From the NCBI GenBank assembly GCA_034431195.1, contig DAOUDP010000001.1, positions 179,385-243,384 of the forward strand: 64,000 nucleotides of DNA. Reading direction: 5' to 3'. Under the pieces are notes generated by a model. It was not told the origin of the DNA and searched no databases. It worked only from the letters and a program-made list of their open reading frames with translations. The position numbers and the translations under genes are program-made. Shown here in pieces: positions 2,666 through 53,300 of the stretch (within the stretch, counting starts at the first letter, position 1; the number at the start of each line of letters is the position of its first letter). This DNA comes from Dehalococcoidia bacterium. GTDB lineage: Bacteria > Chloroflexota > Dehalococcoidia > GIF9 > AB-539-J10.

Positions 2666-4075
2666 ATGAAGCCTCGAAAGTTGTTGTGGTTGAGCCTTTT
2701 GATAGTGGCTAGTCTGGTTATGCCTGCCTTCCTGCAATTCTATGTAGTTCCTCCCCAGGTGGCGATGGCCAGCCCCGATACAGTTACTTATTATTTCAAC
2801 GCTTATGGTGCCGAGGTTTGGGAGTTCAGTCCAGCTTCTATGACCGATGGCAATCTCGGTACCTATGCTTCTACCAACAACGCAGGAGAAGTTCAGCTTA
2901 ATAATGCAAATAACTGTTCCGGAACAGGTTTAGGGCCAATCAGCAAAGTTGAGCTTCGGGCTTATGGATATGGAGATGGTGGAGATTTTATCTATCTTCG
3001 ACCGGTTTTCACCGCAGGAGACGGAACTAACCACACGTGGACTCCAGGAACATCGCCTGGCTGGAGTCCTTACTATAATATTACCAGTGATACCAATGCC
3101 CCCACTTCATGGAACTGGAGCAATGTTCAGGAACTTGACGTTGATGTGGTGTATGATGGTTTAGCTAAACCAAATCTTTTGTATATTGCTAAAGTTGAGA
3201 TTCGGGTTACTTATACACCAAATGTTTCGCCCACTGTGGGCACCATCACCATCTCACCAAGTCCTATGACGCCGCAGGAGCAGTGGACAAATATAACCGT
3301 CCCCGTGACGGATAACGATACTCTCGCTGATGTGAATGAGGTTCATGTCACTGTGTTCTATGACAGTGCCGGAACCGACCCTTCGGCACCAGGGACGGCC
3401 AATGTCCAGACCTGTGCCATACTCACCTGGACCAGGGGAGGTTCTCCCGAGTGGGATATTGACCCGGCAAGCACAACCTGGGCAATCAATGCCGCTGGAT
3501 GCTCCAATGGCACTGACAGCCTGACCACAGATAACTGGGTGTTCTCCCTCAAGGTAGGCAAGGTAGCCACCCAGTCCCCTGGCAGTGATGATTGGGATAT
3601 ATATGCTAAAGCAACGGACAGCGCCAGCCAAACCGGAGATAATTATCTCCGTGATGTAGAGATGAACTGGTATGGCGAGATAACGGTGGAGACTTCAACC
3701 GTCTCCTGGGGAATTGTAAGTCCCGGTTGCAGTAACGAGACATCCCCGGTGGTGAACATTACATACATCTGCAACGGTAACTACACTGAGCAGATAAAGA
3801 CATCACAGAACTGGACCAGCGCTTCGGGCAACGTAACCCTGAATACAACTGGCAGCCCGGGGGCAGGTGAGTTTTCGCTGAAGGCCGATGATGATGACAC
3901 CGTTGCGGACGCTGTGCAGGTTCTTAGTGCATCGTATACCACTTTTGACACTGGCACTCAGACCACTGAGGCTGGGAATGCGGAAAACAACAATCACCTC
4001 TGGCTCTCACTAGGCAGCTCGGGCATCACATATGACACCTACTCCGGCACACTTTACTTCAGCATTGCACCGTGA
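2666..4075 (+). CDS. secreted surface (S-layer-like) protein, N-x-S/T sequon-rich, N-terminal signal peptide
   Basis: Signal peptide MKPRKLLWLSLLIVASLVMPA; Thr/Ser/Asn-rich; about 14 N-x-S/T sequons; paralog of the 4266-5276 product, sharing a NVTLNTTG(S/T)PGAGEFSL...YSGT(L/I)YF C-terminal block. Confidence 0.6.
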   Translation: MKPRKLLWLSLLIVASLVMPAFLQFYVVPPQVAMASPDTVTYYFNAYGAEVWEFSPASMTDGNLGTYASTNNAGEVQLNNANNCSGTGLGPISKVELRAYGYGDGGDFIYLRPVFTAGDGTNHTWTPGTSPGWSPYYNITSDTNAPTSWNWSNVQELDVDVVYDGLAKPNLLYIAKVEIRVTYTPNVSPTVGTITISPSPMTPQEQWTNITVPVTDNDTLADVNEVHVTVFYDSAGTDPSAPGTANVQTCAILTWTRGGSPEWDIDPASTTWAINAAGCSNGTDSLTTDNWVFSLKVGKVATQSPGSDDWDIYAKATDSASQTGDNYLRDVEMNWYGEITVETSTVSWGIVSPGCSNETSPVVNITYICNGNYTEQIKTSQNWTSASGNVTLNTTGSPGAGEFSLKADDDDTVADAVQVLSASYTTFDTGTQTTEAGNAENNNHLWLSLGSSGITYDTYSGTLYFSIAP

Positions 4076-8081: not shown

Positions 8082-8702
8082 ATGGATTGGGAGAGCATAA
8101 TCAGCCTCATAATTGCCCTTTTAGTGGTAATTGCCCTTCCTTTAGCCTTTCGCAGAAGAAAGAAGGCAAGCGTCCAGAAAAGAGAGGAGCTTTACCAGCA
8201 TCTTAAAGAAACGGGGGTGAAGGCTTCGTTGGTGGAAAAAGGCAATGAAAGGGAGAAAATAGGGCTAAGCCGTATCTCGGGGCAGACATCGGAAGGAATT
8301 ATTGAACTCGAAGATAGAAATATAGATTCCATAAATATCATCAGCGCAGCCAGTCAGTATGGCACAAACTATTTCCTGGATTACCTGGTGAAGAGCTCAA
8401 ACATAACGGCGAACCGAATACTAAAGAAAACCAAGCTGACGGTAAAGAAAAGCTTATTCCTATGGGGCAAGGTGGTAGCTATGGAGTGGAAGGGAGATAA
8501 ATCGTTAGCCCAGAGCCTTAATTTCGATTACCGGCTCAAAGATAGACTATTGCAGCGTGATGTCACCGGTCTAAGGGGAAGCATCGGGATCTTCCCTGAG
8601 CCAAAACATGGATACACCAGAATAAGAACTGGTCACTCTCTTCCTTCCCCCGAGATATTCGAAGTATTGGATATCATTGCCAGGCACATCAAGTCATGGT
8701 GA
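8082..8702 (+). CDS. hypothetical membrane protein with an N-terminal TM helix
   Basis: ORF with hydrophobic N-terminus IISLIIALLVVIALPLAF followed by RRRKK; no recognisable family. Confidence 0.4.
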   Translation: MDWESIISLIIALLVVIALPLAFRRRKKASVQKREELYQHLKETGVKASLVEKGNEREKIGLSRISGQTSEGIIELEDRNIDSINIISAASQYGTNYFLDYLVKSSNITANRILKKTKLTVKKSLFLWGKVVAMEWKGDKSLAQSLNFDYRLKDRLLQRDVTGLRGSIGIFPEPKHGYTRIRTGHSLPSPEIFEVLDIIARHIKSW

Positions 8703-11575: not shown

Positions 11576-12697
11576 ATGGTTAAGATACTCCACACTGCCG
11601 ATATTCACCTAGGAGCGAAATTCTCAATCTTGGGTGACAAAGGAATTAAACAGCGTGAGCAGATTAAGAGCACATTCAAGAAAATCACCTCCACTGCTAT
11701 AGACGAAAGGGTGAACATTGTTTTAATCGCCGGAGATTTATTTGACTCAAACTCCCAGCCTCAAGGAAATATAGATTTAGTGATGGAGCAATTCAACTTG
11801 CTCAGGGAAAACAATATCCCTGTATGCCTTATCCCTGGCAACCATGACCCCTTTGATTCCTCTTCGATCTACAGGAAGGTCAATTTTGAACAAATATGCC
11901 CTAATGTAAAGGTTTTTACCGAGGCAGAGATAAGCTATAAGGAATATCCCGAGCTTAATTTGACGGTATATGGCAAGCCAAATTTAAGCAACAAATCTTA
12001 TACCAGCCCGCTGAAAGGGTTAAGACCATCAACGTCAACCAGGTTCCACGTTGCTTTAGCTCATGGCTCGCTTTACATCCCCGGGAAAGTATCAGAGGAT
12101 GATCATCCCTTCAAACTAGAGGAAATCAGCGCCAGTGGCATGGATTACGTTGCACTAGGACACTGGCATCGACCTTATGTGTGCTCAGATAACCCACCAT
12201 CCCGATACCCCGGTCCACCAGAGTGGATTCCTGACCAAGAGGAAATAGGCGATGTGCTTATAGTCAACCTCTCCGACACTGCTGGAGCTGAGATTGAGCC
12301 CAGAAGATTAGCGGCTCGCGGTTACCATAAAGTAGAGTTAGAAGTGAGTGAAATACAAAGCTTAGCTGCGCTAAAGGAAAAAATTGTTGATGGAGCAAGT
12401 CCAAACCTGATAAGAATGGTGATTCTCAAAGGACTCCGAGAGTCAGAACTATTCATAGAGCCTGAAGATTTAAAAAACGAACTAGAACATAAATTTTTCT
12501 TCTTGAGAATAACTGACCAATCTCACCCAAAACTAAAGGAGATACCCGAGACAACTTCTCAAGGACAGCTAATCAAGGCAAGGTTCATTAAACTGATGAA
12601 GGAGAAAATTCAACTGTCTGAAGGAGAGGAGAAAATTGTCGCCGAAAATGCACTTCAATATGGTCTAGCATTGCTCGATGGGAAGGAAGTTTTATAA
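11576..12697 (+). CDS. sbcD: DNA repair exonuclease SbcD/Mre11 family (calcineurin-like phosphoesterase)
   Basis: ILHTADIHLG...AGDLFD...GNHD phosphoesterase motifs; its stop overlaps the start of the downstream SbcC-like gene (ATGA). Confidence 0.8.
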   Translation: MVKILHTADIHLGAKFSILGDKGIKQREQIKSTFKKITSTAIDERVNIVLIAGDLFDSNSQPQGNIDLVMEQFNLLRENNIPVCLIPGNHDPFDSSSIYRKVNFEQICPNVKVFTEAEISYKEYPELNLTVYGKPNLSNKSYTSPLKGLRPSTSTRFHVALAHGSLYIPGKVSEDDHPFKLEEISASGMDYVALGHWHRPYVCSDNPPSRYPGPPEWIPDQEEIGDVLIVNLSDTAGAEIEPRRLAARGYHKVELEVSEIQSLAALKEKIVDGASPNLIRMVILKGLRESELFIEPEDLKNELEHKFFFLRITDQSHPKLKEIPETTSQGQLIKARFIKLMKEKIQLSEGEEKIVAENALQYGLALLDGKEVL

Positions 12698-14823
12698 TGC
12701 TGCTTAACAAAGTTGAGCTTCGGAACTTCAAAAGATTCGCCAATTTCCCAGCTCAATTTAGCCCCGGCATAAATGTGGTCAAGGGTCCTCTCAACGAAAC
12801 AGGAAAGTCTTCTCTGCTTGAAGGCATAATTGTTGCCCTTTTCTACAACCCCAAAAGCACTGCCAGACGGCTCGAGGATTATGCCTCATGGGGTTCAACT
12901 AAAAGATTTGAAACTAATCTCGAGTTCGAGGAGAAGGGAAATAGATACTCGCTTAAAAAGGATTTCCAAAAGGGCATTATCAAGCTGGTGAACCAAGATA
13001 CTGGAGAGGAGCTTGATACCCCTAGAGAAGTATCCCAAAGGATAGAAGAACTGCTGGGAACTGACTCTGATAATCTCTTCCGATGCAGTTCTTGTATTTA
13101 TCAAGACCAGATTAGCGAAGTTACATCGGGCAGGAAAGAAATAAGCGAAAGCCTGGAGGAAGTGGTAACCGGAGGCGAAGAAAAAATCCTCATCTCCAAG
13201 GTAATACAAAAACTGGATGACAAGGTTTACGAGATTAGAAAGGGATTAGATAGGCCAGCAAGGTTTCTCGGTGCATTAGCCAGACTAAAGGGTGAAATCG
13301 AGAGTGCTGAACAACGGCTTCGGGAAATTAGCAATGCGGTAGCGGAGGTAGAGGCTAAGAAAATCGAACTTGTGGAGATTAACAAGAACCTCGCTCAAAT
13401 CAAGCACGAATATGAACGCTCCAAAACCTTATTGGATAAAAATAAATTTAGAATAGAGGTGGAGTTATCAATAGCAAAGCTAGCACAAAAATATAATGAG
13501 ATAGCACAATCGCTCAGTGAAATAAATATCTTGATGGAAAAATCTAGGCAGGCAAACGATGCTCTCAATTCCATGGAAGGCTTGGGAGGCAAAGCCAAGG
13601 TATCTGAAGTAAGAAGCGAGCTAAACGAAGTCCAAATCGAAAAAAGAAATATTGAGGGAGATATAGCAGAGCGAAGGATGGAAATAAACCAAGCTAAGGA
13701 GGAGCTTAATAAACGGAAATTCTACAGGCTTCTTGGCTCAAAACAGAGCATCGCTTGCATAGCAATAATATCCATATGCGGCATAATCGGCACGATAGCC
13801 AGTTCCCTTTATTTCCTTGCCCTGGTAATTATAGGCATGGCCTCCCTTACTGCAGCTATGCGCGCAAAAGGCATTCTGACTCAGGAGGAAACCAAAGTCT
13901 CCGACCTAGAAGACCGAATTCAAAAGATGGAAGTGGCTCTCAAGGAATCAGATGTCAAAGAAAAAAGCTTGTTAACGGAAGTTAAATGCAACACCCTGCA
14001 AGAATTCGAAGAGAAGGAGAAAGACTTTTGGCAACGGAAAGAAGAACAACGGAAATATGAAAACCAGCTAAAAGGAAAGTTAGGGACAAGAAACATTGAG
14101 GAAATTGAACAGCAAAGAATGGAGACAGCAAGAAACCTAGCGGTGGAACAAGCAAAAATCACCGAGGACATAAAAGCTACCGCCTTAAGCCCAGAAAGAT
14201 ACATTGAGCTAGAAAAAATAGTTGAGAAACTGGAGGCGAGGCTGAAACAGCGTGAGCAGGATAAGAACCGTTGTGAAGTATTTATTGAAATGGCAAGGTT
14301 TGATGTAGAAGAGCAAATCAAACTAGAGGAGGAGTTAGATAGTCTTCAACGGGACTTGAGGCTGGAGGAGCGCAGGGTCAAGGTCTACGAATTAGCCGCG
14401 GAGTTTTTATCCCGAGCGAAGAGCGATGCTTTCTTAGCAGCAAACGAGGTTTTAGAAAATGAAACCCGAAAATATTTTGCCATCTTTACCAACGGCAAGT
14501 ATGACCAAGTGAAGATAGGCAACGGAAACTCCGAGTTCCTCGTCTATTCCAAGGAGAAAGGCGATTGGGTTAAACCAGAGGAGCTGAGTGGCGGGGTTAT
14601 TGATGAGTTCTACCTGGCATATCGGCTTGCCTTAGTAAAATTGATATTTGGCAACAAAAATCCCCCCTTACTATTAGATGACCCTTTCGGCAATTTCGAT
14701 TCAGTCCGCCTGAACAAAGCATTACTCCTCTTTAAAGACCTAAGCAAGGATTACCAAATTATTATATTCACCCTGAAAGATACATACGACGAAGTAGCGG
14801 ATAACCTAGTCCAGTTGAGGTAA
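12697..14823 (+). CDS. SbcC/Rad50-like SMC-family ATPase with a central hydrophobic hairpin
   Basis: N-terminal Walker A GPLNETGKSSLLEG; long coiled-coil region; C-terminal LSGG signature and LLLDDPFGNFD Walker B-like motif; the mid-protein segment SIACIAIISICGIIGTIASSLYFLALVIIGMASL is strongly hydrophobic. Confidence 0.7.
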   Translation: MLLNKVELRNFKRFANFPAQFSPGINVVKGPLNETGKSSLLEGIIVALFYNPKSTARRLEDYASWGSTKRFETNLEFEEKGNRYSLKKDFQKGIIKLVNQDTGEELDTPREVSQRIEELLGTDSDNLFRCSSCIYQDQISEVTSGRKEISESLEEVVTGGEEKILISKVIQKLDDKVYEIRKGLDRPARFLGALARLKGEIESAEQRLREISNAVAEVEAKKIELVEINKNLAQIKHEYERSKTLLDKNKFRIEVELSIAKLAQKYNEIAQSLSEINILMEKSRQANDALNSMEGLGGKAKVSEVRSELNEVQIEKRNIEGDIAERRMEINQAKEELNKRKFYRLLGSKQSIACIAIISICGIIGTIASSLYFLALVIIGMASLTAAMRAKGILTQEETKVSDLEDRIQKMEVALKESDVKEKSLLTEVKCNTLQEFEEKEKDFWQRKEEQRKYENQLKGKLGTRNIEEIEQQRMETARNLAVEQAKITEDIKATALSPERYIELEKIVEKLEARLKQREQDKNRCEVFIEMARFDVEEQIKLEEELDSLQRDLRLEERRVKVYELAAEFLSRAKSDAFLAANEVLENETRKYFAIFTNGKYDQVKIGNGNSEFLVYSKEKGDWVKPEELSGGVIDEFYLAYRLALVKLIFGNKNPPLLLDDPFGNFDSVRLNKALLLFKDLSKDYQIIIFTLKDTYDEVADNLVQLR

Positions 14824-16755: not shown

Positions 16756-18048
16756 CTATCTTTTGAGATTACTTCGCTTTGCTCGCAATGACACTGCCTG
16801 GGCGTGAGCATTAAACCCTTCAGCCTCAGCTATGGTTATCGCTGGTTGAGAAAGTTCCCTGGCGGTGGAATCATCCAGGGAAATGATATTGGTGACTTTG
16901 AGGAAATCCTCAACACCGAGGGGCGAACTGAAACGAGCGCTTCCCCCGGTAGGCAATACATGGCTGGGACCGGCAACATAATCGCCAAAAACTACTGATG
17001 AATTATCACCAACGAAAATAGAGCCGGCATTGTAGATTCTGGGAATCAAAGAAGAAGCGTCGGAGACCATAAGGGAAAGATGCTCAGGAGCATAAAGGTT
17101 GACCAATTCAACAGCCTGATCAATATCATCCACAAGGACAATCATCCCACTATCAAGGACTTCAGCGACAATAAAAGACCGCTTCAGCTTATCCAATTTG
17201 AGGGAAATTTCTTCATCAACCTTGTCAGCCAGCTCAGGGAATGTGGTAATCAAAAACACTTTTGCCAGCGGGTCATGCTCAGCCTGAGCGAGAAGCTCAG
17301 CAGCACATAGAGATGCATCGGCAGTGCTGTCAGCCACAATCACAATCTCGCTTGGTCCCTGAAGGCCATCAACGCCTACCTCGCCATAAACCACCATTTT
17401 GGCCAGCATCACAAAAATGTTGCCCGGACCGCAGATTTTATCCACCTTGGGCACTGACTCCGTGCCAAACGCTAGAGCAGCGATAGCTTGAGCACCACCA
17501 ATCTTGAAAATTCGATTTACCTGAGCGATGTTAGCCGCTACCAACGTAGCAGCAGGAATAGCTCCAGTAGGTCGGGGAGGCGAAGCCATAATGATCTGCC
17601 CAACACCAGCCACCTTAGCAGGAATGGCAGTCATCAACACCGTGGAGGGATAACAGGCAGTCCCACCAGGAGTATAGATCCCCACCTTATTCAGCGGCCG
17701 AACTTGTCTTCCCAAACATGGATCAATAGATATAACGCCAGCTTTTGGTAAGCAAGCAAGGTGGAATTCTCTTATCCTCTCAGCAGCTAACTCGAGGGCT
17801 GAGATTAACTTCTTGTCCGCGGCATCATAAGCTGCCGAAATCTCCTGCTGGCTCACCTCCAGAGAATCAAGTTGAGCATCCTCTAATTCCTTAGCGTAGC
17901 GAAAAAGAGCTTTATCACCCTTACTTCGTACCTTGCCGATAATATTTGCCACTACCTGTTGCTGCTCCAGCGCTACATCCAAGGATTTTAGTGGGTCTTT
18001 TCTATCAAGCACTTGCTTTGCTTGGTCAAAACCTTTGATTCTCTTCAC
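16756..18048 (-). CDS. hisD: histidinol dehydrogenase
   Basis: 430 aa with HisD-like sequence throughout; his-operon context. Confidence 0.9.
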   Translation of the reverse strand: MKRIKGFDQAKQVLDRKDPLKSLDVALEQQQVVANIIGKVRSKGDKALFRYAKELEDAQLDSLEVSQQEISAAYDAADKKLISALELAAERIREFHLACLPKAGVISIDPCLGRQVRPLNKVGIYTPGGTACYPSTVLMTAIPAKVAGVGQIIMASPPRPTGAIPAATLVAANIAQVNRIFKIGGAQAIAALAFGTESVPKVDKICGPGNIFVMLAKMVVYGEVGVDGLQGPSEIVIVADSTADASLCAAELLAQAEHDPLAKVFLITTFPELADKVDEEISLKLDKLKRSFIVAEVLDSGMIVLVDDIDQAVELVNLYAPEHLSLMVSDASSLIPRIYNAGSIFVGDNSSVVFGDYVAGPSHVLPTGGSARFSSPLGVEDFLKVTNIISLDDSTARELSQPAITIAEAEGFNAHAQAVSLRAKRSNLKR

Positions 18049-19472
18049 GCTAATCCTCCTCGCATCATCTGAATGAGGAAATCTATTTCTTCCTTCCTAT
18101 CAGGTGAAACAATACTTTCCTTGTTGCCAATGAGGCAAGCAGTGGATTCGCAAAGGGTATCAATAATTTTGAGATTATGCTCCGCCATGGTTCTTCCAGT
18201 TTGCGTGTTATCAATAAGCAAATCGGCATCTTCAGGCAGAAAAGCCTCGCTTGTCCCCCAGGTTAGTATTAGTTTGTATGGACTAACGTGGTGGTCACAA
18301 AGATACTTATCGCTGATATTGACATACTCCGAGGCTACCCTCAGCATGGATAATTTGCCCTTCTGCAGCAATTGTTTAACCTCTTCTATGGTTGATACTG
18401 GCATTTCCTGACTCGTCGCAGCTACGACTTTAACTTTGCCGAAGCCAAGATCCAATAATTCCACCACAGGGCTGGAGGGGAAACGGTAGACATGATCAAG
18501 TAGCCAGTCCCTGCCGGTTATCGCAAGGTCGAAATTGCCGTTGGCTACCTGGAGTGGCATATCCTGAGGCCTGATTACCTTAATATCAAGCCAATCTAGG
18601 TCAACCGAAGGATGATAATCCAGCGCCTCCACAGAATAATGGCTTAAATTGAGTCCAACTCGCTTTAAAAGCTGTGTCGTGGGTGGTAGCTGATGCCCAT
18701 CAGGCAAAGCTAGCCTGACTTTCTTCAGCTCGGGGCGGGGAAGTGACTCAATAGAACCTTCCTTTCTGCCTAATTCCTCAAATGACAAAGAAAACTCCTT
18801 ATTGTCAAGCTTGGAAGCAAAGCAATTCAACACTTCGCCCAAGTCCTTACTATTCAAATTTTTCTGGCTCGCAATTATCATAGCTTTAGTGGGGAGCAAT
18901 TTCATGAGAGGAAGCAAACCTTTCCTTTCCAACTGTCTCCTATTTCTGGCTCCCAATATCGCGATTTCAGCGTTCTCCGGGGGATAGACCTCAGCATCTC
19001 CCCAAACTGGAAAAATCCGAAACCTTCTCATCCTGACACTTAAGGCAAAAGCTTCGGCTAAATTAGGATATTCACTTACTATACGCCAGTTACGTTGCCT
19101 GGCTAGAAATTCATCGAGGTTGGATATTCCTGACTTGTAACTGACTGCGGCGTATACATATCCGCCACCATAATTTAGAGCAGATATCTTCACCACTGCG
19201 CTGGCTTTATACCGCACAAGAAGTTCTTCAATCCAATCCAGTCCACATATCCCCAAGTCATAATTGCCTATCGCCACCTGAATAGGAATATCCTTTTCCC
19301 GAAATATCTTGGCAGCGAGGTAAGGGAGGTTTCTTGACTGAAGCCGATATTGCCTTGTTCGTTCCGTATACCCTTTAAAGCCTAAACCTACATCAGCAAG
19401 TAAATTCGCCGTGGCTGGAAGCAATCTCCCTTTGGGCAAAGCAAGTTTAATATAGTTTGCCTGGTTTGCCAT
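18045..19472 (-). CDS. hisG: ATP phosphoribosyltransferase, tandem fusion of two short-form HisG catalytic domains
   Basis: 475 aa. The first half (KLALPKGRLLPATANLLADVGL...GNYDLGICGLDWIEE) and second half (RLALPDGHQLPPTTQLLKRVGL...GNFDLAITGRDWLLD) each resemble a complete short HisG. Confidence 0.8.
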   Translation of the reverse strand: MANQANYIKLALPKGRLLPATANLLADVGLGFKGYTERTRQYRLQSRNLPYLAAKIFREKDIPIQVAIGNYDLGICGLDWIEELLVRYKASAVVKISALNYGGGYVYAAVSYKSGISNLDEFLARQRNWRIVSEYPNLAEAFALSVRMRRFRIFPVWGDAEVYPPENAEIAILGARNRRQLERKGLLPLMKLLPTKAMIIASQKNLNSKDLGEVLNCFASKLDNKEFSLSFEELGRKEGSIESLPRPELKKVRLALPDGHQLPPTTQLLKRVGLNLSHYSVEALDYHPSVDLDWLDIKVIRPQDMPLQVANGNFDLAITGRDWLLDHVYRFPSSPVVELLDLGFGKVKVVAATSQEMPVSTIEEVKQLLQKGKLSMLRVASEYVNISDKYLCDHHVSPYKLILTWGTSEAFLPEDADLLIDNTQTGRTMAEHNLKIIDTLCESTACLIGNKESIVSPDRKEEIDFLIQMMRGGLA

Positions 19473-19478
19473 AGAAAT

Positions 19479-20720
19479 CTAATCTACACCACCTAACATA
19501 CCAGCAACCTGAGTCAAAGAGCTGACCTCCCGTTTCTCTCCGCTCTTGCGGTCAATAATGACAAAAGAGCCTTCACCAAGAACAGAAACAACCCATCGGT
19601 AATCCGCCGCTCTCCCTCCGGCCAAGTCAAGCTCAACTATATGCCCCGTGTTACGAAGCAATTGAGCCAAGCTAAAGCATGCCTCCATCACTCCTGGGGT
19701 TCTTCCACCTGCTTTAACTAACACCCCAGACTCACTACGCTCATCTTCCTTCAAGGAGAGCATCTTTATCACCGGCTCAACATAAATGGCAAATCCACAA
19801 GCTGGCATGTTCTTGCTGCCCATCAGCGATAGGAGCTCATCATACCTCCCACCACCACCAATTTTTTCGCCCCGGTAGAACAATTGAAGGCAAACTCCAG
19901 TGTAATACTCAAAGCCATGTATGGCAGCAATATCAATCCAATAATCACATTTCAAGTCATCCAACAACCTGACAATGTCGGTGAAATCACTAAGATTGGA
20001 TTTTAGCCCCGCCGAAGCTTGTGATGCTGGAAGTTCAACTTTCTTGAGGAAGTCGCTTAATTTCCCTTTAAAGTTCACCACAGAGGCAAGAAACCTATCC
20101 ACCTCAAGGTTATTTGATTTTACCTTCCTCCATGCCTGCCAATCACCATCCAAAATACGACCGAGCATTCCAGCTTCGTCTTTGGGGCTAAGTCCAAGTT
20201 CCTTAACCAGTGCCTTCGCCAAACCAGCGTGGGACAGCCGCAACTCCACCTCGCCAATACCGAGATTATGTAATAGCTCACGGGCTAACAACATCAGCTC
20301 TACATCTGCCATTGGACTAGCACCACCCAAGAACTCGACACCACATTGCCACCGCTCCCTGTTTTCCTTCCCCGTCTGCTCGAAAGCAAAGATGTCAGTG
20401 ACATAGAAAAGCCTGGCATCCTGCTGCTGGCTTAGATTTTCGATATAAAGTCTGGCTATAGGTATAGTGCCATCCGGTCTGAGCACCACCCTTTCTCCAC
20501 TCCACCCATCCCAATCAAGAAAGGAATATGCCTTGCCCAATTTGCTAGGAGTGAGTGTTCCTGTAGCGGTAAATAGGTGGAGATATTCCAAGCTTGGTGT
20601 CCTTACTTCTCGGTACCCCCACTTAACACAGCAATTGCGGAAGGTATCCTCAATATAGCGAAATCGTCGCATATCATCGGGGAGTAAATCCCTCATGCCT
20701 TTACAGCGCTGGCTTTCCAT
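19479..20720 (-). CDS. hisZ: HisRS paralog, likely ATP phosphoribosyltransferase regulatory subunit HisZ; a genuine HisS is not excluded
   Basis: Class II aaRS-like sequence (GMRDLLPDD...LRPDGTIPIARLY...GGGRYDEL) with a partly degenerate motif 2 (FAFEQTGKENRERWQ); retains a C-terminal anticodon-binding-like domain; sits at the head of the his operon next to short-form-type HisG. Confidence 0.55.
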   Translation of the reverse strand: MESQRCKGMRDLLPDDMRRFRYIEDTFRNCCVKWGYREVRTPSLEYLHLFTATGTLTPSKLGKAYSFLDWDGWSGERVVLRPDGTIPIARLYIENLSQQQDARLFYVTDIFAFEQTGKENRERWQCGVEFLGGASPMADVELMLLARELLHNLGIGEVELRLSHAGLAKALVKELGLSPKDEAGMLGRILDGDWQAWRKVKSNNLEVDRFLASVVNFKGKLSDFLKKVELPASQASAGLKSNLSDFTDIVRLLDDLKCDYWIDIAAIHGFEYYTGVCLQLFYRGEKIGGGGRYDELLSLMGSKNMPACGFAIYVEPVIKMLSLKEDERSESGVLVKAGGRTPGVMEACFSLAQLLRNTGHIVELDLAGGRAADYRWVVSVLGEGSFVIIDRKSGEKREVSSLTQVAGMLGGVD

Positions 20721-36630: not shown

Positions 36631-36843
36631 ATGCTTGATAGAGATGTAGTTGAAGAATTCCTTGATTGTGAACTTGAGGGTATAGAAATTCCTGCGGATA
36701 TTTCCAAGGAACAGCTTGTAGAAGCTTTTTGTCAGTATGTTGAAGATGATTACTACGAATGGCTGAAGGATAACTTCAAGTCGTTCTTCGACCACTGCAA
36801 CCCAGATTGGGAGTGGATAAGGGAGAAGCTTAAGAACCAGTGA
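36631..36843 (+). CDS. small hypothetical protein (70 aa), intact copy of the duplicated small gene
   Basis: ORF with a partial diverged copy at 34237-34400; its stop overlaps the polX start. Confidence 0.45.
   Translation: MLDRDVVEEFLDCELEGIEIPADISKEQLVEAFCQYVEDDYYEWLKDNFKSFFDHCNPDWEWIREKLKNQ
36727..36793 (+). repeat. direct repeat copy B'
   Basis: Matches 34321-34389. Confidence 0.75.
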
Positions 36844-38564
36844 GAAACACCGCTATCGCCAAAGTATTCAGCGATATAGCAGACCTCCTCGAGCTCAAAG
36901 GTGAGAACCAGTTCAAGATTCGTGCTTACCAGAAGGCAGTTCGCGCTATTGAGCACTATCCCAAGGAAATAAGAATTATGATTGACGAAGGGGAGGACTT
37001 GAAGAGTATCCCCGGGGTAGGAGACGCAATAGCCAAAAAAACAACCGAACTGGTGAAGACGGGAAAACTGGAATACTACGAGAAACTTAAAGCCGAGTTT
37101 CCCGAAGGGATAACTAATCTCCTCGATATACCGGGGATTGGCCCAAAGACAGCTAACAAACTCTGCTCCGAACTGGGGATAACTTCAGCAGATAGCCTGG
37201 AGCAAGCGATAAAGGATGGCAGCGTGGCCACGCTGTTTCGTCTTGGTGAAAAGACCGCCAATAATATCCTCCAGCAAGTCGAGGCCTCCCGCCGCAAGGA
37301 CCAACGCATCTCTATCGGGGAGGCTTTGCCTATCGTCGAAGAAATACTCAGTGCTCTCAACTCTGTCCCCGGGGTGAGAAATCTAACTTACGCTGGAAGT
37401 CTGCGCCGCTTCCGAGAAACATTGGGCGACATTGACCTTATGGGCACCGTCGATAACCCCCAGAAAGTTATGGACGCTTTTGTCTCGTTACCTATTGTAG
37501 GGCAGGTTTTAGTCCAGGGACCCACTAAATCAAGCGCCATAGTCTCCGGTGGTTTGCAAGTCGACTTAAGACTGGTAGAACACGAGGCTTTTGGGTCACT
37601 GCTTCAATATTTCACCGGAAGTAAACAACATAATATTTCTTTAAGGGAAAGAGGGCGAAGGCAAGGATTAAAATTGAGCGAATATGGCATCACCGATATT
37701 GCCACAGATAAGCTGGAGAAATTTGCTGATGAAGAGAATTTTTATCACCGACTGGGGATGCAGTATATTCCCCCCGAGCTTAGAGAAGATCAAGGCGAGG
37801 TGGAAAAGGCTGAACGGGGAGCCATCCCCAGGCTTGTAGAGGTGTCCGATATAAAGGGAGACCTCCATATGCACACCGATTGGAGTGATGGGCATAGCTC
37901 CATCAAGGAAATGGCTCTAGCGGCTAAAAAATTAGGGTATCAGTATATTGCCATCACCGAGCATTCCGGTGGGCGCGGCATCGCCCACGGGCTTGATGTT
38001 GAACGGCTAAGGAAACAGATTGAGGAAATCAAAAAGGTCAATGAATACATAGATGGCATTCAAGTGTTCAGTGGCATCGAGGTTGATATCCGAGCAGATG
38101 GGACTCTGGATTTACCCCACGAAATTTTGGCAAAGTTGGATGTAGTTATCGCTGCGGTGCATTCAGCGATGAACCAAAGCGAGGGAAAAATGACCCAGAG
38201 AGTACTAAGCGCTGTGGAGGACCCCGATGTCGACATTATTGCCCATCCTACCTGTCGTCTTCTGGGCGAGCGTGAACCTATAGCCCTTGACCTGGAAGCG
38301 GTTTTTCGCACCGCTGTCAAGAACAACAAAATCATGGAGATAAATGCCATGCCCGACAGACTTGACTTGAATGATATTCATGCCTCCAGGGCTAGAGAAC
38401 TAGGTGTGAAGCTTGCTATCGAGACCGATGCCCATGCTGTCTCCCACCTTGATTTTATGAGGTTTGGAGTCGGCATGGCGCGGCGAGCCTGGTGTGAGCC
38501 TCAACATATAGTAAATACTCTGCCCCTGGCAGACGTGCTCACCTTCCTGAATGTGAGCAGATAA
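36840..38564 (+). CDS. polX: DNA polymerase X family protein with a C-terminal PHP phosphoesterase domain
   Basis: N-terminal NxxIAxxFxxIAxLLExxGENxFKIRAY helix-hairpin-helix region; PolX palm; C-terminal PHP (DLHMHTDWSDG...). Confidence 0.9.
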   Translation: MRNTAIAKVFSDIADLLELKGENQFKIRAYQKAVRAIEHYPKEIRIMIDEGEDLKSIPGVGDAIAKKTTELVKTGKLEYYEKLKAEFPEGITNLLDIPGIGPKTANKLCSELGITSADSLEQAIKDGSVATLFRLGEKTANNILQQVEASRRKDQRISIGEALPIVEEILSALNSVPGVRNLTYAGSLRRFRETLGDIDLMGTVDNPQKVMDAFVSLPIVGQVLVQGPTKSSAIVSGGLQVDLRLVEHEAFGSLLQYFTGSKQHNISLRERGRRQGLKLSEYGITDIATDKLEKFADEENFYHRLGMQYIPPELREDQGEVEKAERGAIPRLVEVSDIKGDLHMHTDWSDGHSSIKEMALAAKKLGYQYIAITEHSGGRGIAHGLDVERLRKQIEEIKKVNEYIDGIQVFSGIEVDIRADGTLDLPHEILAKLDVVIAAVHSAMNQSEGKMTQRVLSAVEDPDVDIIAHPTCRLLGEREPIALDLEAVFRTAVKNNKIMEINAMPDRLDLNDIHASRARELGVKLAIETDAHAVSHLDFMRFGVGMARRAWCEPQHIVNTLPLADVLTFLNVSR

Positions 38565-51354: not shown

Positions 51355-51579
51355 ATTACACCCGCCCTATCAAATATTCGGGACACTCTACCTTGAACTC
51401 CAGAGTTTGTCAATCAAGCTGTATCTGTTCATAATGTAACCAACACGTGTGACCGAAATCACGATTCCCTTGCGCATGTTATAGCTATCTTTAACTTTGT
51501 CCAGTCAACCTCTCTTGACAAAGGGTGGGCTTGCTACATAAAATATAATAGAACTGAATAAGTGAAAGGCTGCGAACAG

Positions 51580-51835
51580 GACTAGTACAGTCTGAGGCGG
51601 AGTTTAGAGAGTCGGGTAAGGTGTAAGCCGATACTTGCGCAAGACTGGAATGGACCTGGGAGCTGCAAACCGAAAGGCTACAAGGCTGAGTAGGCTTTGT
51701 CGGTAGGGCACCGTTAGAAGCCCAGGGTATCGCTCTCAAGTTGAGCTGTATCCGAGAAGAGATAGTCGTAAGACTGAAATGGGGTGGCACCGCGAAGGTT
51801 AGGCCTCTCGCCCCCTGGCGAGAGGCCTTTTTATT
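51580..51835 (+). promoter_or_regulatory. T-box riboswitch leader (Trp-specific) upstream of trpB2
   Basis: Conserved T-box sequence AAATGGGGTGGCACCGCG at 51777-51794; UGG codons in the putative specifier region (ACUGGAAUGGA); followed by an intrinsic terminator. Confidence 0.7.
51801..51835 (+). terminator. Rho-independent terminator of the T-box leader
   Basis: AGGCCTCTCGCC-CCCT-GGCGAGAGGCCT followed by TTTTATT. Confidence 0.75.
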
Positions 51836-51938: not shown

Positions 51939-53300
51939 ATGGAAAGAACAAAATTCACCCTTGATGAAACAGAAATCCCTACTCATTGGTACAACATCCA
52001 GGCTGACTTGCCCAAGCCACTGCCACCGGTTCTGCACCCAGGTACTGGAAATCCAGTCACTCCTGACGATTTAGCACCCCTATTTCCCATGGAGCTGATC
52101 AAGCAAGAGGTGAGCACTGAGCGGTGGATTGAAATACCCGAGGAGGTGCGCGATGTATACCAGCTATGGAGACCGACAACGCTATTTCGGGCGCATAGAT
52201 TGGAGAAGGCTCTGGATACGCCGGCAAAGATTTTCTACAAATATGAAGGGACAAGCCCTCCCGGCAGCCATAAGCCAAATACCGCCGTAGCCCAGGCATA
52301 TTACAACAAGCAGGAAGGGATAAAGCGCATCAGCACCGAGACTGGAGCAGGGCAGTGGGGAAGTGCCCTATCCTTTGGTGGCGCCTGCTTCGGCGTTGAG
52401 ATCAAGGTCTATATGGTGAGGATTAGCTATGATCAAAAGCCTTACCGCAGAATAATGATGGAGACCTGGGGGGCGAAATGCGTGCCCAGCCCGAGTGAGG
52501 ATACCAAGGTAGGGCGAGATATGCTGGCAAAATGGCCTGATTGTCCCGGCAGCCTGGGTCTTGCCATTAGCGAGGCTGTGGAGGATTGTGTGACCCATGA
52601 TGACACTCACTACGCCCTGGGCAGCGTGCTCAACCATGTTCTGCTGCATCAAACTGTGAACGGCCTGGAGGCGAAAAAGCTGATGGAGAAGGCAGATGCC
52701 TACCCCGACATCATCGTCGGCTGCATTGGTGGAGGCTCAAACTTCGCCGGGCTATTTTTGCCCTTTGTCAAAGATAAAATTGATGGTACAAAGCCAGACC
52801 TGCGTGTCATCAATGTAGAGCCCATGTCTGCTCCCAGCGTTACCAAGGGACTATATACCTATGACTTTGGCGATTCAGCCCAGCTCACCCCCTTGATTAA
52901 GATGTATACCCTGGGACATAGCTTCATTCCACCCCCGATTCACGCTGGTGGACTGCGCTATCACGGGATGGCACCCATAATTTGCCATCTCCATCAATTA
53001 GGGCTTGTTGAAGCCAGGGCTGAGCACCAGCTTGCCACCTTCGAAGCGGGGGTGACCTTCGCCCGCACCGAGGGCATCATCAGTGCTCCAGAGCCATGCC
53101 ATAATATTAAGGTTGCCATTGACGAAGCCTTGAAATGTCGCGAGTCAGGCGAGTTAAAAACCATCCTGATAGCCCACAGCGGACATGGACATGTTGACAT
53201 GGCTGCCTATGATGCTTACTTTTCGGGCAAGCTCCAGGATTATGAGTATCCCGAGGATAAAGTAAAGGAGGCGCTGGCTGAGCTACCAAAGGTAGGCTAA
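51939..53300 (+). CDS. trpB: tryptophan synthase beta chain-like, TrpB2 family
   Basis: PLP-lysine motif GSHKPN; 453-aa long-form TrpB2-type length; downstream of a Trp T-box. Confidence 0.8.

Follow-up and report, generated by a model that had tools for sequence, protein, structure and literature searches.

The apical zinc hook is treated as a hallmark of Rad50 and SbcC, the ATPases that act with the nucleases Mre11 and SbcD. The described system closest to the one considered here is the YhaN/YhaO pair of Bacillus subtilis, which was named SbcE/SbcF in 2009 and is encoded in the gene order yhaO, yhaN, yhaM (PMC2811018). SbcE resembles SbcC, lacks a CxxC motif, has deviant Walker motifs, and carries a ‘unique central domain’ that is hydrophobic in its first half and, when isolated, completely insoluble (PMC2811018). 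In the same study, SbcE and SbcF interacted in yeast two-hybrid assays, SbcE localized to the DNA-uptake pole, and loss of sbcE led to sensitivity to double-strand breaks and lowered transformation about 20-fold (PMC2811018). Literature searches returned this one experimental paper on the family and none in which the central domain is called a membrane anchor; in the searchable literature, no SMC-class ATPase is described as membrane-integral. Here, a related gene pair is analysed in a stretch of 64,000 nucleotides (hereafter the window) from a Dehalococcoidia bacterium (contig DAOUDP010000001.1, positions 179,385 to 243,384). The pair represents a broad sister family of Rad50/SbcC that has, instead of the zinc hook, a predicted membrane hairpin, together with a RecF-like Asp-Asp in the Walker B motif. 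Taken as a whole, the data are best explained by an SbcF/SbcE-type nuclease-ATPase machine that is anchored by this hairpin and turns over slowly, a reading that we consider probable.

The pair is formed by two co-directional open reading frames (ORFs), 11576-12697 (forward strand, 373 amino acids, aa) and 12697-14823 (forward strand, 708 aa), which meet in the sequence TAATG, where one base is common to the stop codon of the nuclease gene and the start codon of the ATPase gene. These coordinates had been given in a preliminary description of the same DNA and match the ORF list exactly. The features of the two genes are listed here in order of position.

11576-12697, forward strand: Mre11/SbcD/SbcF (YhaO)-type metallophosphoesterase nuclease, 373 aa, from Pfam, NCBIfam and PDB matches
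11600-11608, forward strand: nuclease phosphoesterase motif I, DIH
11732-11743, forward strand: nuclease phosphoesterase motif II, GDLF
11837-11848, forward strand: nuclease phosphoesterase motif III, GNHD
12056-12067, forward strand: nuclease phosphoesterase motif IV, LAHG
12158-12169, forward strand: nuclease phosphoesterase motif V, GHWH
12697-14823, forward strand: SbcE (YhaN)-like ABC ATPase of the Rad50/SbcC class, 708 aa, from Pfam, NCBIfam, PDB and fold matches
12784-12810, forward strand: Walker A motif (P-loop) GPLNETGKS, residues 30-38, with one residue inserted compared with the family consensus G-P-N-E-x-G-K-S
13096-13110, forward strand: Q-loop IYQDQ, with Q136, aligned with the Rad50 Q-loop
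13273-13734, forward strand: ascending coiled-coil arm, residues 193-346, with AlphaFold2 helices at 193-291 and 299-339
13744-13860, forward strand: apical hydrophobic hairpin, residues 350-388, with predicted transmembrane (TM) segments TM1 (351-368) and TM2 (371-388) and a turn at S369-S370
13861-14487, forward strand: descending coiled-coil arm leading into the C-terminal head, residues 389-597, with AlphaFold2 helices at 372-428, 434-462, 467-486, 499-532 and 537-597
14584-14598, forward strand: ABC signature LSGGV, residues 630-634, opposite LSGGE of Rad50
14665-14700, forward strand: Walker B motif and D-loop PLLLDDPFGNFD, residues 657-668, with D662 in place of the catalytic Glu
14755-14781, forward strand: H-loop region QIIIFTLKD, residues 687-695, with L693 at the position of the switch His

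The ATPase had been described beforehand as an SbcC/Rad50-like protein whose long coiled coil carries at its centre, in place of a CxxC zinc hook, about 40 consecutive hydrophobic residues predicted to form a TM hairpin. The quoted string is present, and residues 350-388 (QSIACIAIISICGIIGTIASSLYFLALVIIGMASLTAAM) form an unbroken row of 39 uncharged residues over which the 19-residue Kyte-Doolittle mean peaks at 2.24; an uncharged run of this length arose in none of 20000 shuffles of the protein. On both sides the run is bordered by segments rich in Lys and Arg (NKRKFYRLLGSK and RAK). On a Hessa-type insertion-energy scale, the summed energies are about -1 kcal/mol for each of the segments 351-368 and 371-388, the best other 18-mer of the protein reaching +8.4. 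An AlphaFold2 model built with 20 homologues as input (mean predicted local distance difference test score, pLDDT, of 79.7) shows an α/β head with long helices and a helix-turn-helix at residues 349-390, with one helix at 349-368, a break at 369-371 and a second helix from 372 onward, so that hydrophobicity, insertion energies and model all agree with the predicted hairpin. Each of the two hydrophobic helices has about 18 residues, and the turn between them 2-3. The long coiled coil is likewise found in the model as an antiparallel pair of helical strands with about 150-170 residues each, an arm that would measure about 20-25 nm if extended. No CxxC motif is present at the apex; the sole one in the protein is C130-SSC133, in the N-terminal head, and this CSSC (residues 130-133) was rejected as a zinc hook because it sits in the head beside the Q-loop. 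From these properties, the ATPase is very likely to be membrane-associated.

The hairpin is not confined to the window. A profile of 20 homologues was searched against 1.84 billion cluster representatives and gave 19,699 matches at E<=1e-3, with 691 representatives at E<=1e-30; the top 150 matches are full-length proteins of about 700 aa, and motifs and hairpin were counted in the 141 representatives of at least 600 aa among the top matches. Among the 120 homologues listed (54-100% identity), the central uncharged stretch measures 37-41 residues, except in one (P0044, about 25). In the distant representatives the median length of the hydrophobic segment at the centre is 46 residues, and about 137 of the 141 show two helices linked by a short polar turn. 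The sequence of the hairpin drifts while its hydrophobicity, length and two-segment layout are kept. Small residues recur at positions 355 (94% small), 362 (74% Gly), 365 (69% Gly), 380 (87% small) and 387, and Ser-Pro is frequent in the turn; the heptad spacing of these residues on either helix points to close packing between helices. In 137 family members, the two distances that separate the hairpin from Walker A and from Walker B are correlated (r = 0.89), and longer relatives of about 830 aa gain about 60 residues on each side of the hairpin. The hairpin is therefore placed at the tip of an antiparallel arm, since N-side and C-side lengths co-vary as such a layout requires.

The head of the ATPase belongs to the Rad50 type, as had been proposed for its N-terminal and C-terminal halves. 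It is matched by Pfam AAA_23 (48.5 bits), SMC_N (38.5 bits) and AAA_27 (19.8 bits), and by the NCBIfam Rad50 models (E 1e-27). Both halves align to archaeal Rad50 heads in phmmer searches of the PDB, and motif positions were read from the alignments to the Rad50 proteins of M. jannaschii and P. furiosus. When the AlphaFold2 model was compared with the PDB by Foldseek, the best match was Rad50 of C. thermophilum (7zr1, E 4e-18), and further matches included SMC5/6, MukB, more Rad50 heads, and the LmuB and JetC families. Walker A K37, Q136 and the signature LSGG are present, Q136 being invariant in an alignment of the close clade (A1) and at least 90% conserved in a further alignment (A3). The preliminary description had also reported an Asp for the catalytic Glu in Walker B and no obvious His in the H-loop. 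Aligning the Q-loop, signature, Walker B and H-loop with Rad50 did not recover a canonical Glu or His: within LLLDDPF, LLLDDP lies opposite ILDEP, so that D662 faces the catalytic Glu, and L693, which is invariant in the close clade, lies opposite the H-loop His (IIIFTL against IIITH or LVSH). All 120 homologues listed keep both Asp-Asp and FTL. Among the 141 representatives, Walker B reads DDP in 125, DD[S/A/V/K] in 11 and DEP in three; the H-loop position is held family-wide by Cys in 59, His in 16, Arg in 15 and Leu in 12. In 52 diverse members with 24-54% identity, G30, N33, E34, G36, K37, S631, R643, D661, D668 and Q687 are invariant. One further deviation had not been remarked before. 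Compared with the other family members and with SbcC, RecF and Rad50, the P-loop has one extra residue (GPLNETGKS against GE-NGSGKS of Rad50). The insertion is found in 10 of 136 representatives, all of them from a Dehalococcoidia-related clade, and the inserted residue is Leu, Phe, Arg or Gln; we know of no precedent for a P-loop insertion of this kind.

With Asp in place of the catalytic Glu and no switch His, this head is likely to hydrolyse ATP only slowly. The Glu-to-Asp change is also known from degenerate ABC-transporter sites, for instance in TAP1, where it goes together with His-to-Gln. ATP would still bind and drive engagement of the heads, because the Walker A Lys, the Q-loop, the signature Ser and the D-loop Asp are invariant. 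Within the reach of computational checks, each element of the preliminary reading, which had suggested a membrane-tethered and possibly ATPase-attenuated SMC-like protein, was borne out.

The partner gene encodes a protein that matches Pfam Metallophos (E 8e-18), aligns through residues 3-355 with positions 1-352 of the 374 in the NCBIfam archaeal Mre11_Sulfo model, that is, over its full length, and has P. furiosus Mre11 as its best PDB match (E 1e-11). It shares 32% identity over 220 aa with Listeria YhaO (103 bits), the score against E. coli SbcD being 45.8 bits. All five phosphoesterase motifs are present, and the product of 11576-12697, called SbcD in the preliminary description, can be assigned from them as an Mre11/SbcD-type phosphoesterase of Mre11 fold with its metal-binding motifs intact.

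The association of the two genes is constant. In all 78 loci for which upstream DNA was available, from Dehalococcoidia, Actinomycetota, Zixibacteria, candidate-phyla-radiation bacteria and Armatimonadota, an Mre11-like gene lies directly upstream of the ATPase gene and abuts or overlaps it. The exact peptide motif LDDPFV[TN]F alone retrieves relatives in 366 species-level genomes, which belong to Dehalococcoidia, Anaerolineae, Actinomycetota (including Slackia), Zixibacteria, Saccharibacteria, Dojkabacteria, Armatimonadota and Ignavibacteria, along with one Methanocellaceae assembly. Relatives from named genomes come from Dehalococcoidia/Chloroflexota assemblies, and the names under which relatives are filed are ‘AAA family ATPase’, ‘SbcCD ATPase subunit’ and ‘uncharacterized protein YhaN’. 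The hairpin, the Asp-Asp Walker B and the order of nuclease followed by ATPase are conserved across phyla. A third conserved gene was sought around the pair in 42 diverse loci, and none was found across phyla, the neighbours being lineage-specific genes and spurious high-GC ORFs only. A UvrD/AddA-like helicase (about 1100 aa) is encoded no more than 3.5 kb from the pair in seven of these 42 loci (e.g. L081, 7054-10371, reverse strand); the association is not universal and may reflect a functional link to end processing. As for the archaeal assembly, the pair is carried there by a 6-kb contig binned to a methanogenic archaeon, Methanocellaceae archaeon UBA148 (DAHG01000028.1; L059, 2997-5102), and could represent either horizontal transfer or a binning error.

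The link to SbcE/SbcF was drawn through bona fide yhaO-yhaN-yhaM loci, located next to prsA, in Listeria and Staphylococcus aureus DNA that was exposed by tblastn searches against plasmids and phages. Both records look mislabelled: a Listeria monocytogenes chromosome of 2.9 Mb filed as ‘plasmid unnamed’ (NZ_CP030101.1, L084), and a 54-kb ‘Staphylococcus phage’ contig (OR845005.1, L087) which carries chromosomal yhaO-yhaN-yhaM-prsA and appears to be host DNA. The YhaN proteins of Listeria and S. aureus (907 and 981 aa) have the Walker A motif GENEAGKST, the central hairpins MVSLGIFAVAFVLMIVFQAIWSVALVFVSALIVGYAFITTG (Listeria) and TTFILLTLVGIGLTAFSFISNNMLFGIIFAVLTLVFVIGIIMS (S. aureus), the Walker B motifs IIIDDGF and LIVDDAF, and the H-loop regions FTCH and FTCV, respectively. 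In hhalign comparisons, the profile of a 52-sequence family alignment (A2) matched Listeria YhaN with a probability of 99.8, an E-value of 7e-28 and a score of 221, against 95.5, 1.6e-8 and 75 for E. coli SbcC. The Pfam family AAA_27 is matched by Listeria and S. aureus YhaN with 82 and 89 bits, and at E<=0.01 by 51 of 52 diverse relatives. Judged by these comparisons, the hairpin and the Asp-Asp are traits of the large existing SbcE/SbcF (YhaN/YhaO) family and not oddities of the window gene, and the window pair is best classed as a short-armed, divergent branch of the SbcE/SbcF superfamily, not as a strict member of Pfam AAA_27. No earlier description seems to exist of how far the family extends outside Gram-positive bacteria, of its shorter form or of the P-loop insertion.

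Several observations weigh against the reading of the pair as a membrane-anchored SbcF/SbcE-type machine. In B. subtilis, SbcE-YFP forms foci on nucleoids that move between the poles, unlike what would naively be expected of an integral membrane protein (PMC2811018), and the literature searched holds no report of membrane localization, topology or ATPase activity for any family member. At the hairpin itself the confidence of the AlphaFold2 model is just about 57-62. The hairpin is also not absolutely required, because one family member has a soluble insert at its place and another a stretch of about 25 residues. The first (P0175, 806 aa) has an Asp-Asp Walker B and a NEAGKS Walker A, and lacks a hydrophobic apex, its centre being taken up by a polar insert some 60 residues long (…FKRPTPYEIETEDGIVSAGDGAAGATLEETAKKEVRIDFKGVAEVRVAAKD…); the apex module thus seems exchangeable within the family. 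The second (P0044; L003, 6001-8454, 817 aa, 59% identity) has a central stretch of just about 25 hydrophobic residues, not enough for two membrane spans and hard to reconcile topologically with an antiparallel arm; it may reflect an assembly error or represent a re-entrant variant. In the Dehalococcoidia-related clade, the extra P-loop residue could have altered or abolished nucleotide binding. Finally, only the C-terminal head aligns to YhaN at high significance and the window ATPase falls below the gathering threshold of AAA_27 (19.8 against 22 bits), for which reasons any functional transfer from B. subtilis would span a large distance.

If the pair does work as a hairpin-anchored, slow-turnover machine, the hairpin would insert in the cytoplasmic membrane, spanning or entering it, with both ends inside, and the catalytic head would therefore hang from the inner face of the membrane on its arm, about 20-25 nm below. 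The hairpins of two protomers may pack through their heptad-spaced small residues and so join the apices, which is the job of zinc in Rad50. Binding of ATP would close the heads on DNA, and slow hydrolysis would result in a long-lived, ATP-bound, DNA-clamping state; the complex might process, hold or protect DNA ends near the membrane or envelope. The case of B. subtilis, the only species in which such functions are known, suggests by analogy that the pair serves in double-strand-break repair and/or in the handling of incoming DNA, a role for and against which the chances seem evenly balanced. A wider proposal is put forward more tentatively, as conceivable but short of probable: SbcE-type proteins might be integral-membrane members of the SMC/Rad50 class, in which a TM hairpin replaces the zinc hook as both joiner and anchor, and might constitute, from Bacillota to Chloroflexota to small-genome candidate-phyla-radiation bacteria, an Mre11-Rad50 paralogue for DNA at the envelope (uptake or envelope-proximal breaks).

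Among the alternatives, the one that survives best is still unlikely. It holds that the pair is a membrane-tethered nuclease of defence or DNA exclusion, similar to Lamassu or Wadjet, which cuts entering phage or plasmid DNA and does not serve chromosome repair. The PADLOC model of LmuB matches the ATPase over its full length (E 9e-16), with weaker PtuA-type matches at the N-terminus, and LmuB of the Salmonella Lamassu system and JetC are among the fold matches; the LmuB match, however, is of the generic kind seen among SMC-class heads, and no LmuA, LmuC or JetABD-type partner was found, the Mre11-type nuclease being the sole conserved one. Weak partial relatives do occur on plasmids and phages, but the tblastn matches there are head-only and cover at most 42% of the protein. 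Anchoring in the membrane would put the nuclease where foreign DNA arrives, and the position of SbcE at the DNA-uptake pole would fit such a task, yet the loss of sbcE in B. subtilis lowers transformation and does not raise it (PMC2811018). The genomic setting also speaks against defence. The pair sits between a phosphofructokinase gene and a histidine-biosynthesis cluster, its neighbours in the window include genes of histidine, branched-chain amino-acid and glycolysis pathways, and the rest of the window is made up of housekeeping genes (SecA, DnaK, ValRS, IleRS, a PolX). A compositional break was looked for in the window and none was found, nor any island signature; in three annotated Dehalococcoidia-type loci the neighbours are again amino-acid biosynthesis or housekeeping genes. 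Known defence systems are generally patchier in their distribution than a pair that one exact motif detects in 366 species genomes. With neither partners nor island context, the defence-island reading was rejected.

The next alternative, to which we would give slightly less credit again, is that the head is dead with respect to hydrolysis and merely structural, so that the protein, without ATP turnover or even ATP binding, does no more than tether the nuclease, or DNA, to the membrane. The three deviations of the active site (Asp for Glu, no switch His, the P-loop insertion) would agree with this, as would the high variability of the H-loop position across the family. Against it, little or no variation is seen at the Walker A Gly and Lys, Q136, S631, D661, D668 and R643 among members from different phyla with 24-54% identity, which indicates selection on nucleotide binding and head engagement; RecF, with the same Asp-Asp, has a weak but real ATPase activity; and the residue inserted in the P-loop varies (Leu, Phe, Arg or Gln) within a clade that keeps all else. 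The last alternative, a soluble SbcCD variant in which the hydrophobic stretch is a buried apical dimerization element (a protein-protein hook), finds some agreement in the dimerization of Rad50, SMC and MukB through their apices, in the SbcE-YFP signal on nucleoids (PMC2811018), in the soluble apex of P0175 and in the modest confidence of the model at the hairpin, but is very improbable given 39 uncharged residues whose Kyte-Doolittle mean exceeds 2.2 and whose predicted insertion energy is negative, far outside the range of soluble coiled-coil tips, a sequence that drifts while hydrophobicity, length and layout are kept, as expected of lipid-facing helices, clusters of Lys and Arg on both flanks, and the complete insolubility of the isolated B. 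subtilis central domain (PMC2811018).

Some other elements of the window were recorded. A hisG-like ORF of 474 aa (18045-19472, reverse strand) contains two tandem HisG domains (Pfam HisG, two stretches, E 6e-58) and adjoins a 412-aa HisZ-like paralogue of histidyl-tRNA synthetase (19479-20720, reverse strand); a duplicated, fused short-form HisG is unusual. The PolX-type polymerase (36840-38564, forward strand), with the domains HHH_8, DNA_pol_B_thumb and a C-terminal PHP, lies about 22 kb from the pair and adds a further gene of DNA repair to the window. At 51563-51818 (forward strand), upstream of an ORF at 51939-53300, a T-box leader was identified (Rfam RF00230, 102 bits). For two sizeable ORFs, 2666-4075 (forward strand, 469 aa) and 8082-8702 (forward strand, 206 aa), Pfam gave nothing at E<=1e-5; the shorter product has a hydrophobic segment (MDWESIISLIIALLVVIALPLAF) at its N-terminus, then RRRKK, and is conserved beside the same neighbours in locus L001.

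For the window itself, the value of the analysis lies mainly in correct annotation, as an SbcEF-type pair and not as canonical SbcCD. If the anchor is true, it would limit where the nuclease can act, and it would offer a testable idea of why many bacteria keep a second system similar to Mre11-Rad50.

In comparison with known systems, Lamassu is similar in that the PADLOC LmuB model aligns with the ATPase from end to end and a Salmonella Lamassu structure is among its fold matches. The window pair, however, lacks LmuA and LmuC partners and a defence-island context, Rad50 models score higher than LmuB, and the solved Lamassu complex has no membrane hairpin. RecF shares features of the active site, as E. 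coli RecF has an Asp-Asp in Walker B (LYLIDDFASELD) and no His at the H-loop position; RecF, whose ATPase is weak but real, offers a precedent for an SMC-class head to which ATP serves mainly as a switch for dimerization and DNA binding. In contrast to the window ATPase, RecF has neither a long coiled coil, nor a nuclease partner, nor a membrane segment.

Closer similarity is seen with SbcCD and Mre11-Rad50, which also form a two-gene nuclease-ATPase module with an Mre11 fold and five phosphoesterase motifs, a split ABC head, a long antiparallel coiled coil, a Q-loop, a signature and a D-loop. The apex of E. coli SbcC, however, is a CPLC zinc hook (residue 506), whereas that of the window protein is a hydrophobic hairpin, and E. 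coli SbcC has the catalytic Glu (LFLDEG) and the switch His (VISH), where the window protein has Asp and Leu. The window pair is, moreover, far less similar to SbcC/SbcD than to YhaN/YhaO. On these alignments it is a paralogue class of bacterial SbcCD and archaeal Mre11-Rad50 and not a canonical SbcCD.

The closest relative by all these features is SbcEF. In the window, in Listeria and in S. aureus alike, a gene for an Mre11/SbcD-like nuclease is followed on the same strand by an abutting or overlapping ATPase gene. The ATPases share a head of the Rad50/SbcC class with a Walker A motif of the form NE-x-GK[ST] (with one extra residue in the window), the absence of CxxC, a central segment of two hydrophobic helices between the arms, a Walker B motif of the form h-h-h-D-D followed by the D-loop F-x-x-FD, and the lack of a canonical switch His (FTC or FTL). 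The differences are as follows: the window ATPase has 708 aa against 907-981 aa, its arms being about 100-130 residues shorter per strand; its P-loop has the one-residue insertion; its signature is the canonical LSGG, whereas YhaN of Firmicutes has LSQA or LSQS; no yhaM-type exoribonuclease gene lies downstream; and the host is a Dehalococcoidia-type member of the Chloroflexota and not a Gram-positive member of the Bacillota.

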